From a bacterium (lineage in GTDB: Bacteria; Hinthialibacterota; Hinthialibacteria; Hinthialibacterales; Hinthialibacteraceae): a DNA stretch of 64,000 nt. Within the stretch, counting starts at the first letter, position 1. Every line of letters starts with the position of its first letter. The notes below the pieces were generated by a model. That model did no database searches and was not told the origin of the DNA. It saw only the letters and a list, made by a program, of their open reading frames with translations. The position numbers and the translations under genes were made by a program. The stretch is taken from contig CAXXSM010000109.1 of assembly GCA_963663405.2 (NCBI GenBank), forward strand, positions 1 through 64,000. The letters run 5' to 3'. Shown piece after piece: positions 45,332-47,337 of this stretch.

Positions 45332-46792
45332 TCATTCATCCCCAATAATCTCCCGCAGTTTAGGAATCATCTCTTCACGGGGAATGGTTTGTTGGCCGGT
45401 TTTCCCGGATTTTCTGTATTCATCCCGATCGCTGATATCCGCCCGTTTCTCTTTGCCAGCGACCAAATCTTTGATTGAGATCTGATTGGATTCCAGTTCG
45501 TCGGAACCTACGATAATCGCGGCGGGGATATTCTTGTGATTGGCGTAGGCTAATTGATCGCTCATCTTGGCTTTCCGTTTGCCAAGATAGATCTCCGCTG
45601 AAATGTTGTTATCCCGCAATTCACGCGCGATTTTCAGCAATTCGGTCATGGGCACGCCTCGCATTGTGATGATTAAGACTTTCGTCGTCGTCGGCTCTGT
45701 ATCGATTTTCCCGATGGCATTTAATCCCGCCAACAACCGGTCAAGGCCGATGGAGACACCCGTCGCGGGGATTGGGTCAGGCATGAATCGTTCAACCAAG
45801 TGATCGTACCGTCCACCACCCATGATGGAACCGACCTGTGGCGCTCCGGGAAGAATCGTCTCGTACACCGGGCCTGTATAATAATCAAGACCGCGGGCGA
45901 GGCTGGGCAAGAAAACCACTTCGTCTTCTCCCACGCCAAGGCTGTCCAATGCGGCGGCCAGTTCTTTCATTTCATCAATTGCGGTATGTGTGCATTCCGC
46001 GTCAGGCAAGACCTTACCAACCGTTTCCAAAACCGACGCCCGAGTTTCTGAAGAAATGGCGATAAATTCGAGGATTTTATCGATTGTGCCGCTTTCCAGC
46101 CCCACTCCACGAATCGGATCACCCGATTCATCAACACGGCCTTCGCCTAATTCCTTCCGAATGTTGTCTAAGCCAACTTTGTCCAGTTTATCGACGACGC
46201 GCAGAACATGCTTTCTCGTCTCTTCACCATCGATATTGGATGCGATCAAGAGCGCGTCCATTAACCCGCGGCTGTTTACACGAATCTGATATTCACCATC
46301 GCTCAATCCCAAGTCACGCAGGACATCACACATGGCCGCAATGATTTCAGCGTCGATCACAACCGATTTGGATCCCGCCGCGTCGATATCAAATTGCGTA
46401 AACTGGCGGAACCGGCCGGGACCGGGTTTATCCGCGCGGAACACGGGTCCAATGTGATAGCGCCGGAAAGGCAATTTCACCGTATCGGGATACTGCGCCA
46501 AAATACGCGCGAAGGGAACGGTCAGATCGAAACGCATGCCAATCGGTTCCCGTTCCGGGCTTTCCAGCCGGAAAATCTCTTTATTGATCTCCTCGCCACC
46601 GGTTCCAATTAACGTGACGAGGTATTCAAGAATCGGCGTATCGATCGGCACGAAACCGTATCGCTCGTACACATTGCGTATCACCTCAATGACGCGATTG
46701 CGGGCGATCATCTCCTCCGGAAGATAATCACAGAATCCTTTTAAAGTTTGAGGTTGAACGAATCCCTTTGCTTGTTCCGGACTTTGAGTCAT
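45332..46792 (-). CDS. hisS: Histidine--tRNA ligase, alphaproteobacterial-like type
   Basis: LKGFCDYLP, MRFDLTVPFAR, motif 2 FRADKPGPGRFRQFTQFDID, LARGLDYYTG, GGGRYD, GVSIGLDRL; insertion GEGRVDESGD. Confidence 0.95.
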   Translation of the reverse strand: MTQSPEQAKGFVQPQTLKGFCDYLPEEMIARNRVIEVIRNVYERYGFVPIDTPILEYLVTLIGTGGEEINKEIFRLESPEREPIGMRFDLTVPFARILAQYPDTVKLPFRRYHIGPVFRADKPGPGRFRQFTQFDIDAAGSKSVVIDAEIIAAMCDVLRDLGLSDGEYQIRVNSRGLMDALLIASNIDGEETRKHVLRVVDKLDKVGLDNIRKELGEGRVDESGDPIRGVGLESGTIDKILEFIAISSETRASVLETVGKVLPDAECTHTAIDEMKELAAALDSLGVGEDEVVFLPSLARGLDYYTGPVYETILPGAPQVGSIMGGGRYDHLVERFMPDPIPATGVSIGLDRLLAGLNAIGKIDTEPTTTKVLIITMRGVPMTELLKIARELRDNNISAEIYLGKRKAKMSDQLAYANHKNIPAAIIVGSDELESNQISIKDLVAGKEKRADISDRDEYRKSGKTGQQTIPREEMIPKLREIIGDE

Positions 46793-46860
46793 GAAAAGCG
46801 TCCTCCTGCGCTGTTTTCTCTAATAAAACTGCTGTTACATTAATTCACTGATAGAGTTTT

Positions 46861-47003
46861 TTGTCTGAATCAGGATGGCCAAGATTTAAAGGATGGCCAG
46901 GATAATTTGCACTTTATTGAGGGATATTTCATGAAAATGAGAGTCACTATAATGATTCCTATCCTGCGAATCCTAATCATCCTGGGTATCCAGATTCAGA
47001 CAA
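46861..47003. repeat. Inverted pair of TGTCTGAATC-(GGAT)n arms (MITE/REP-like)
   Basis: TTGTCTGAATCAGGAT..GGAT..AGGAT (46861-46903) and ATCCTG..ATCC..ATCCTG..ATCCAGATTCAGACAA (46961-47003). Confidence 0.75.
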
Positions 47004-47151
47004 AGATATCTCTCTTGTTTCATCTGTAATATACTATTTCCGTACGTATTCGCGTAACCTCAATTATAATAATGCCGTCCGTGTCAATCGCGAGAACCAA
47101 CCCGAATGGGTGATTCCTTTATCTTAATCGTACAAACGGTAAATGGAAAAA

Positions 47152-47229
47152 TGGTACCGGGAACGGGACTTGAACCCATGACCTCCTGATCCACAGTCAG
47201 GCGCTCTAAACCAACTGAGCTATCCCGGC
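47152..47229 (-). tRNA. tRNA-His(GUG), downstream copy; no G-1, A73
   Basis: Cloverleaf GCCGGGA-TA-GCTC..GAGC-G-CCTGA-CT GTG GA-TCAGG-AGGTC-ATGGG-TTCAAGT-CCCGT-TCCCGGT-A-CCA. Confidence 0.97.
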
Positions 47230-47259
47230 TCGTTATGTTCGAAGACGTTAAAAGAGGAA

Positions 47260-47337
47260 TGGTACCGGGAACGGGACTTGAACCCATGACCTCCTGATCC
47301 ACAGTCAGGCGCTCTAAACCAACTGAGCTATCCCGGC
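47260..47337 (-). tRNA. tRNA-His(GUG), upstream copy, identical; no G-1, A73
   Basis: Identical 78-nt cloverleaf with encoded CCA; 30-nt spacer to the other copy. Confidence 0.97.

Follow-up and report, generated by a model that had tools for sequence, protein, structure and literature searches.

The window analysed here is a 64,000-nucleotide stretch of bacterial DNA (GenBank assembly GCA_963663405.2, contig CAXXSM010000109.1, hereafter contig C109, positions 1 to 64,000 of the forward strand). On its minus strand it carries hisG, two tRNAHis genes and hisS, the gene for histidyl-tRNA synthetase (HisRS). It was concluded, with a probability of roughly 85%, that this locus is a complete and self-sufficient histidine-identity module, hisG - tRNAHis x2 - hisS, of the Caulobacter kind that is independent of the guanosine at position -1 of tRNAHis (G-1), and that the module has spread horizontally. 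Reviews from 2011 and 2023 place an unusual HisRS together with a G-1-less tRNAHis in a small alphaproteobacterial clade (PMC3245924, PMC9976931; all papers are cited here for those parts of their text that were available), and the G-1-less trait has been described as a unique synapomorphy of likely single bacterial origin (PMC3937112). Such tRNAHis also occurs in alphaproteobacterial phages (PMC5389517). In the full-text literature, the coverage of which leaves out subscription journals, no report of a G-1-less bacterial tRNAHis beyond Alphaproteobacteria and their phages was found. The locus itself belongs to a known G-1-less kind, and the system is apparently unreported outside Alphaproteobacteria.

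Two tRNA genes were detected by ARAGORN in the 64 kb, both of them tRNA-His(gtg) on the minus strand: copy 1 at 47260..47337 and copy 2 at 47152..47229. The copies are identical at 78/78 nt and are separated by a spacer of 30 nt. Both begin with GCCGGGA and end with TCCCGGT-A-CCA, GCCGGGA pairing with TCCCGGT, which gives G1:U72, C3:G70, A73 and an encoded CCA; this last feature does not distinguish tRNA-His from other tRNAs in the same genome. The base at -1 is T in the upstream copy 1 and A in the downstream copy 2, and no G-1 is templated. The Rfam tRNA model scored 70.9 bits for each copy (gathering score 29) and placed its position 1 at 47337 and 47229. In the minimum-free-energy fold, a 7-bp acceptor stem closed by G1-U72 is accompanied by a 4-bp D stem and a normal T arm. 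The D-loop, AGUUGGUUUA, has 10 nt, with the extra U present and one more nucleotide. The canonical identity set consists of an encoded G-1, C73 and a Gln in the motif-2 loop of the synthetase, and none of these was found at the window locus.

The enzyme was identified in the hisS gene at 45332..46792 (minus strand), which encodes a histidine--tRNA ligase of 486 aa and matches the TIGR00442 hisS equivalog over its full length with 383 bits (cut-off 286.75). Its motif-2 loop, FRADKPGPGRFRQF (residues 118-131, codons at 46400..46441, minus strand), has Gly at the canonical Gln position. A Gly replacing the Gln that reads G-1:C73 is described for this loop, also called IIb, in a figure legend of PMC3937112 (Fig. 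S1). In the alignment the loop of the window enzyme, RADKPGPGRFRQF, stands beside RNEKPGPGRFRQF of the five named alphaproteobacterial enzymes and RYERKQKGRFRQH of relatives with a canonical HisRS; the canonical HisRS of the window's own taxonomic family read FRYERKQKGRFRQH. The core of the loop is KPGPGR in the window enzyme, as against ERKQKGR in the E. coli-like enzymes of the same family. Residues R119, P123, G126, R129 and F131 were invariant across the 50 family members aligned. A KPGPGR loop alone is not diagnostic, because two proteins outside the clade described below, P0180 and P0205, carry it, and they lack at least the hairpin insert.

This insert, GEGRVDESGDPIRGVGL (residues 216-232, codons at 46097..46147, minus strand), includes GEGRVDESGD and was modelled as a beta hairpin. 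The pattern GxGRxDESGDxxxGxGL is common to the window and alphaproteobacterial HisRS and is missing in the other HisRS types displayed; G218, D221, G224 and G229 were invariant across the same 50 family members. A second insert of about 20 residues (447-466, codons at 45395..45454, minus strand) lies on the anticodon-binding domain, where the model gives it two short helices. It was present in HisRS of the window type, of family f2, of Bryobacterales-labelled genomes and of Alphaproteobacteria, and absent in 7/7 non-clade enzymes (20 sequences displayed). For G-1-independent HisRS, a number of unique insertions have been reported, including one within the anticodon-binding domain (PMC3064791, PMC3245924). 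The AlphaFold2 model of the window enzyme reached a mean pLDDT of 91.4, with means over 10-residue blocks of 90-95 in the hairpin and 75-86 in the second insert. The nearest solved structures, those of the Elizabethkingia, Nostoc and human cytosolic HisRS, are 29-32% identical to it; the family has no solved structure, the best match in the PDB being about 30%. An earlier note, made from the DNA sequence alone (the original prediction), had described the tRNA ends with A or T at -1, G1:U72 and A73, and a HisRS with this loop and the GEGRVDESGD insertion. The former were recovered by ARAGORN, Rfam and the fold, and the latter are present in the 486-aa reading frame.

Sequence identity to the five named alphaproteobacterial enzymes was 37-40%, compared with 32-34% for canonical enzymes in the same search and about 25% for the E. 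coli-like HisRS found in the taxonomic family of the window. The five enzymes (Sinorhizobium, Ruegeria, Paracoccus, Methylobacterium and Cereibacter) come from chromosome-sized records filed as plasmids. Another member of the family, P0121 (796 aa), has the HisRS, 57% identical, at residues 312-788, behind an N-terminal extension of about 310 residues.

The relationship was evaluated by phylogeny. In a FastTree analysis of 241 HisRS rows, all KPxPGR enzymes formed one clade with a support of 99. A maximum-likelihood (ML) tree was then obtained with IQ-TREE for 91 rows, hand-picked from the 241 to span the FastTree result, with the columns of the motif-2 loop and of the hairpin insert removed. 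The same clade was recovered, with 56 rows including the alphaproteobacteria and the window, at 99 in the ultrafast bootstrap (UFBoot) and 95 in the SH-aLRT test. L144, L150, L163, L170, L175 and L176 had been dropped from the trees as fragments or frameshifted sequences, and L114, L131 and L166 as duplicates (of the genes of L002, L005 and L003, respectively). The alphaproteobacterial rows made up a subclade of their own (99/86), which was joined by three further representatives at 100/99. The window fell in a group of seven rows (96/94) with G009, G012, G029, an Opitutales-labelled metagenome-assembled genome (MAG), a Verrucomicrobiota-labelled protein and P0007. From these sequences, the window HisRS is assigned to the same family as the alphaproteobacterial enzymes, is not nested among the sampled ones and does not derive from crown Alphaproteobacteria.

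Whether tRNA and enzyme vary together was examined in the 35 species genomes that represent the window's phylum in the collection. Of these, 9/35 have the G-1-independent HisRS family: five the window's close type (the other four 60-67% identical to it) and four, from family f2, a version 48-49% identical. In seven of these nine a tRNA-His was found, and 7/7 combine G1:U72 and A73 with an A or a T at -1. Of the remaining 26 genomes, 24 yielded a tRNA-His, and 24/24 have G at -1 and C73. No tRNA-His was found in G009 and G024, which hold the family, nor in G005 and G023, which have other HisRS. Genomes with both HisRS types numbered 0/35. When 48 tRNA-His genes were compared, 24/24 with C73 had G-1; among the 24 with A73, two had G-1 and 21 had G1:U72. 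The -1/73 pattern is beyond chance.

Outside the phylum, all tRNA-His genes recovered from genomes or contigs that hold this HisRS family had A73. The sources were Methylobacterium, five Bryobacterales/Acidobacteria genomes, four Hydrogenedentota genomes or contigs, three Verrucomicrobiota, two Planctomycetota, one each labelled Abditibacteriaceae and Sumerlaeota, and two Actinomycetota-labelled contigs. In total 27 A73 genes were collected, all from genomes or contigs with this family (the end of L055, cut at 3', was read by eye). Their -1 base is T in 17, A in 6, G in 3 and C in 1, and their 1:72 pair is G:U in 24, G:C in 2 and A:U in 1. The Methylobacterium gene (L178) has G1:U72 and C3:G70 as in the window, and the two tRNAs are 91% identical over positions 8-50. 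Variants were observed within this set. The contigs L147 and L159, labelled Micromonosporaceae and Bifidobacteriaceae, carry a linked tRNA-His with A73 but G1:C72, and their HisRS loop is longer and keeps Gln (DPQPEQGR and APQPEQGR); these Actinomycetota labels may be wrong. In L188 (G042, Bryobacterales-labelled) the tRNA-His has A1:U72 and the HisRS loop is KPQPGR, with Gln inside the G-1-independent clade.

The host was placed by its RpoB (1278 aa), which is 79-83% identical to that of MAGs named Candidatus Omnitrophota, 'bacterium' and Candidatus Hinthialibacter sp. The next-nearest sequences were Omnitrophica-labelled (61-63%) and Nitrospirota (55-56%), and no alphaproteobacterial name occurred among the 120 RpoB matches listed. 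Hinthialibacter is the type genus of Candidatus Hinthialibacterota, and by this marker the host is Hinthialibacterota-like and not alphaproteobacterial. An alphaproteobacterial-type HisRS in a non-alphaproteobacterial genome was what the original prediction had proposed. Both halves of that proposal held: the enzyme has the three shared traits and groups in the 56-row clade even with the loop and hairpin columns removed, apart from canonical bacterial enzymes, and RpoB places the genome elsewhere.

The assembly comprises 8.44 Mb in 170 contigs with 46.9% G+C, and its completeness and contamination were estimated at 82.36% and 2.42%. A search of it for other tRNA-His genes, a second hisS and Thg1-like genes, as had been suggested beforehand, found none in this 82%-complete assembly. 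Forty-two tRNA genes were counted, with the two window copies as the only tRNA-His (a tRNA-SeC(tca) gene lies on contig C22 of the same genome, at 30979-31074). A single hisS match was obtained, by protein query and by family model alike, and 0/13 scored candidates matched Thg1 (PF04446), with Methanosarcina acetivorans positive as control. The alternative that survives best holds that the G-1-less pair is accessory and that a canonical hisS and a G-1:C73 tRNA-His in the unassembled 18% do the main work. The incomplete assembly, the absence of several expected isoacceptors from the 42 tRNAs and the canonical pair of the relative G001 speak for it. Nevertheless, three genomes with the same HisRS, G009 (91% complete), G012 (95%) and G029 (96%), each gave one TIGR00442 hisS match and were negative with canonical tRNA-His queries, and no genome of the 35 has both types, which makes a hidden canonical pair quite unlikely.

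It was also considered that the contig had been mis-binned and that the pair comes from another organism, for instance a Hydrogenedentota-like one. The genome is a MAG with some estimated contamination, and a phylum with the Hydrogenedentota label has this HisRS family as its standard. On the other hand, an M16 peptidase encoded 2.4 kb from hisS is nearest to its counterparts in the family relatives G009, G012 and G008 (59-61% identity; next best <=43%), a repeat in the tRNA-hisS spacer recurs on 41 contigs, the nearest HisRS and HisG occur in two relatives from the same family (G009 and G012) and one from the same class (G029), and the bin has no further hisS or tRNA-His; mis-binning is highly unlikely. 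The contig is native to this genome, as judged from the peptidase, the repeat and the G+C content at third codon positions (GC3), which is 0.56 in hisS and hisG and 0.51-0.55 in neighbouring genes. In addition, the 88-nt contig piece 47200-47287, which bridges the two tRNA-His copies, was recovered in runs X1 and X3 from separate studies. The strain in X3 is about 97% identical, and its pieces extend from hisS to the first tRNA, bridge the copies and run on into hisG.

Composition, as GC3, gave no sign of recent transfer. The module is not a recent arrival, since its GC3 matches that of its neighbours and a host repeat has been inserted in its spacer. When the regions of about 10 kb around hisS of G009, G012, G029 and G020 were compared with window positions 33000-58000, no clear counterparts were found besides hisS (and hisG in G029); the two other hits were weak, with 22-24% identity. 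Nor did the surroundings of the canonical hisS in G010 and G007 have anything in common with the same part of the window. Insertion boundaries cannot be drawn from flanks that are not shared.

Regarding function, the module would work as follows, by analogy with the Caulobacter system. With no G-1:C73 pair possible in the precursor, RNase P would cut at +1 and leave an ordinary acceptor stem of 7 bp. A U at -1, as is frequent here, would be in keeping with usual RNase P substrates. The HisRS, with its loop Gly and the extra element on the anticodon-binding domain, would read the GUG anticodon, U72 and A73, with no need for G-1. In C. crescentus, the recognition elements are the anticodon, U72 and A73, with losses of 91- to 1000-fold upon anticodon changes and of 91-fold for U72C, and an added G-1 brings no gain (PMC3064791). 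A different possibility is that G-1 is added post-transcriptionally opposite A73, as in eukaryotes, and is still used by the HisRS. This would agree with A73 being the eukaryotic discriminator and with the human cytosolic HisRS being among the closest solved structures. It is opposed by the negative Thg1 search of the 82%-complete assembly with its positive control, by the Gly in the loop where readers of G-1:C73 have Gln (PMC3937112) and by the homologous Caulobacter enzyme, which gains nothing from G-1 (PMC3064791), and was considered very improbable. Convergence, in which the window lineage lost G-1 independently of the alphaproteobacteria, is scarcely credible given two shared inserts with invariant residues, a clade that persists at 99/95 without the loop and hairpin columns, and tRNA bodies as alike as those of the window and Methylobacterium, despite KPGPGR-like loops in P0180 and P0205 outside the clade and a possible convergence of the alphaproteobacterial A73 identity itself with eukaryotes (PMC5370408).

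A horizontally spread G-1-independent module is the preferred reading, and the distribution of its parts was examined. The 120 closest database proteins listed were 57-70% identical to the window HisRS, with Omnitrophota, Verrucomicrobiota, Abditibacteriaceae, Nitrospirae and Hydrogenedentes among their names and none alphaproteobacterial. A pattern scan of species genomes yielded 58 loci of the family. By NCBI label these were Hydrogenedentota 21, Bryobacterales/Acidobacteria 16, Nitrospir- 4, 'bacterium' 4, Verrucomicrobiota 3, Planctomycetota 3, Omnitrophota 2, Actinomycetota 2, and one each for Abditibacteriaceae, Sumerlaeota and Rhodothermaeota; some of these MAG labels may be wrong. The scan used peptides of the window protein, and its counts are therefore biased to close kin and the missing alphaproteobacterial rows are uninformative. 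In the phylum of the genome G046 (contig label Hydrogenedentes), the family was found in 121/135 genomes (E<=1e-100), and in the order of the Bryobacterales-labelled G041 in 72/151.

Within the window's own phylum the picture is patchy. The window's taxonomic family (20 genomes) has the E. coli-like HisRS in 13, a third type in G004, G014 and G015, the window type in G000 (the window genome), G009 and G012, and a fragment in G003. Among the relatives G001-G019 (L017, L020, L021, L079-L092) the HisRS types were E. coli-like, WRGERPQEGRYREF and G-1-independent, and the WRGERPQEGRYREF-type genomes form a separate clade on the RpoB tree. On that tree G000 groups with G012, G009 and G001 (SH-aLRT 97), and G029 is nested among genomes of family f5 with the canonical pair. 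Such a distribution requires several gains or losses, and HisRS replacement seems to be unusually frequent in this phylum.

Linkage recurs along with the enzyme. A same-strand tRNA-His lies directly 5' of hisS in at least 12/58 loci, some of the 58 having almost no upstream flank; for the five alphaproteobacterial loci, a tRNA within 3 kb of hisS was found in 0/5. The full order hisG-tRNAHis-hisS was observed in the window, in G029 (L166), in G026 (L131) and in the Verrucomicrobiaceae-labelled L137. The window HisG is 62-66% identical to those of G009, G012 and G029; for the remaining relatives listed with a full-length HisG match, the identity is 44-49%. On these sequences, the hisG type appears to travel with the hisS type. 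In family f2 (G020, G022 and G025), the tRNA-His lies within about 150 nt of hisG and hisS is on another contig; the hisG there belongs to the common type and shares 44-45% identity with that of the window. In G012 (L203, contig G012:C49, about 9480-9553) a decayed tRNA-His was found just 5' of hisS. It was not called by ARAGORN, and its GTG anticodon is legible and its stems are broken; an intact copy lies on another contig of that genome and a 43-nt piece beside hisG.

Two ideas of the original prediction can be judged from these data. The suggestion that the enzyme and its tRNAs moved together as a linked module is borne out in so far as tRNA, HisRS and hisG recur linked in several phyla. 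That the lineage is an unrecognised second home of the system was partly right, as large unrecognised homes exist in other groups; in the window's own phylum the system is patchy, with 9/35 genomes. The HisRS family and its matching tRNA would be one lineage shared with Rhizobiales, Rhodobacterales and Caulobacterales and, from distribution and trees, spread horizontally among phyla. In the window's lineage the module would have taken the place of the canonical G-1:C73 pair, which is still in use in most of its taxonomic family. Its arrival would be old enough for a host-like composition and for the insertion of a host repeat.

Several observations weigh against this interpretation or limit it. 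Identity to the alphaproteobacterial HisRS is no higher than the 37-40% given above. The D-loop has 10 nt here vs 9 nt, always with U20a, in the alphaproteobacterial group (PMC3064791), and its length ranges from 7 to 10 nt across the non-alphaproteobacterial tRNA-His of the G-1-less system; the rules for the tRNA body may therefore differ from the alphaproteobacterial ones. Three of the 27 A73 genes have G at -1. No RNA run was listed with the locus. A completeness of 82% leaves room for a second pair in unassembled DNA. On the RpoB tree G001 falls in with G009 and G012, and its canonical pair requires an extra gain, a loss or a binning error. Concerning the HisRS trees, the ultrafast bootstrap was unsettled (correlation 0.919). 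The backbone of the clade is poorly supported (37-64) and the tree is unrooted, and for this reason neither the donor nor the direction of transfer can be named. A separate hand-picked set of 33 rows, with a quick tree, was used in approximately unbiased (AU) tests on groups picked after the trees had been seen. A single clade of the phylum's close-type enzymes was not rejected (p 0.176 and 0.376), so the transfers into the phylum cannot be counted; for three family members without P0007 the result was borderline (p 0.050).

The remaining features of the locus were also mapped. Along the minus strand, hisG is followed by a low-GC open reading frame (ORF) of 281 aa, tRNAHis, tRNAHis, hisS and a HigB/HTH pair. 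The first gene of the cluster, hisG (48211..49104, minus strand), encodes an ATP phosphoribosyltransferase (Pfam PF01634 HisG, E 2.9e-37). The ORF between it and the tRNA genes (47412..48257, minus strand) has a GC content of 34.5% vs 47.5% for the window, matches no Pfam family at E<=0.01 and has no second copy in the genome by blastn. It is missing from the cluster of G029, where hisG abuts the tRNA, and could be inserted foreign DNA, or no gene at all. A promoter-like site, TTGCCA-17-TATTAT with 10/12 consensus matches, lies 5' of the first tRNA-His (47355..47383, minus strand). It is the sole one in the region vs 4.7 expected in shuffles, and is taken as a consensus match only; terminator and promoter scans of the region did no better than shuffles.

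The gap between the tRNA genes and hisS is 359 nt in the window vs about 70 nt in G026 and G029, because a palindromic repeat element was inserted there. This element, resembling a miniature inverted-repeat transposable element (MITE), was located at 46850..47014 and is an inverted repeat with 55-nt arms, 73% complementary. A blastn query with positions 46840-47020 gave 95 hits in the same genome, including its own place, on 41 contigs, with 30 hits >=120 nt. In run X1 the position of the repeat showed raised depth, several joints and loose ends. For a T-box or other leader 5' of hisS, Rfam at E<=1 over 44400-49600 returned nothing besides the two tRNAs and a YrlA match below threshold, which overlaps the tRNA-His genes (24.1 bits vs a threshold of 69). 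Directly 3' of hisS, at 44607-45219 (minus strand), a HigB-like toxin gene (PF05015) and an HTH_3 antitoxin-like gene were observed. Toxin-antitoxin pairs are frequent markers of mobile or island DNA.

Four known systems serve for comparison. The closest is the RRCH clade (Rhodobacteraceae, Rhizobiales, Caulobacterales, Hyphomonadaceae; most SAR11), with biochemistry on C. crescentus (PMC3064791, PMC3937112). Its tRNAHis conserves G1:U72 and C3:G70 and has a nine-nt D-loop with U20a (PMC3064791). The window shares with it a tRNA without G-1, with G1:U72, C3:G70, A73 and an enlarged D-loop with an extra U; a HisRS with the loop Gly, the GxGRxDESGD insert and the anticodon-binding-domain insert, in the same clade; and a linkage of hisS and hisG, which takes the form hisS-hisZ-hisG in Ruegeria and Cereibacter vs hisG-tRNA-hisS in the window. 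It differs in having its host in another phylum, in a HisRS 37-40% identical that stands outside the alphaproteobacterial subclade, in a duplicated tRNA gene linked to hisS, in the 10-nt D-loop and in the absence of hisZ between the genes. With the canonical bacterial system, in which G-1:C73 is retained by RNase P and an E. coli-type HisRS is used, the window has the amino acid, the anticodon and the class II fold in common, but its tRNA lacks G-1 and has A73 for C73, and its loop is KPGPGR vs ERKQKGR.

Trypanosoma brucei and Acanthamoeba castellanii, which are Thg1-less protists, also combine a G-1-less tRNAHis with a non-canonical HisRS and no Thg1 (PMC4338351, PMC9976931). Their system, unlike that of the window, is eukaryotic and cytosolic; the window protein matches the structures from T. 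cruzi and T. brucei only at E 1e-41 to 1e-43. The tRNAHis of alphaproteobacterial phages is G-1-less with A73, and this case shows that the tRNA type can travel (PMC5389517). In contrast to the window's 7/5 cloverleaf beside a synthetase, the phage tRNA has an 8/4 acceptor/T arrangement and no synthetase.

The G-1:C73 pair is counted among the most conserved bacterial identity rules, and its loss is said to be confined to one alphaproteobacterial clade (PMC3245924, PMC9976931). The presence of the same system in many lineages weakens the G-1-less trait as a phylogenetic marker. It also warns annotators that a G-1-less tRNA-His is no error in these phyla. By analogy with Caulobacter (PMC3064791), the pair may have potential as an orthogonal pair, and the family would offer dozens of natural and diverse candidate HisRS/tRNAHis pairs of this kind. 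The wider pattern, with the family standard in another phylum and with linked hisG-tRNA-hisS, is more interesting than the single locus. Here would be a concrete case of a synthetase spreading with its cognate tRNA, an obvious route round the identity-rule barrier to synthetase transfer. As a tentative extension, to which somewhat less than even odds are given, hisG-tRNAHis-hisS could be a transferable 'identity cassette' that replaces G-1:C73 in one step, since the synthetase would move together with its own tRNA and with a gene of the histidine pathway. Such a replacement would have been repeated in at least eight differently labelled lineages, and the alphaproteobacterial system would be one offshoot, maybe itself acquired.

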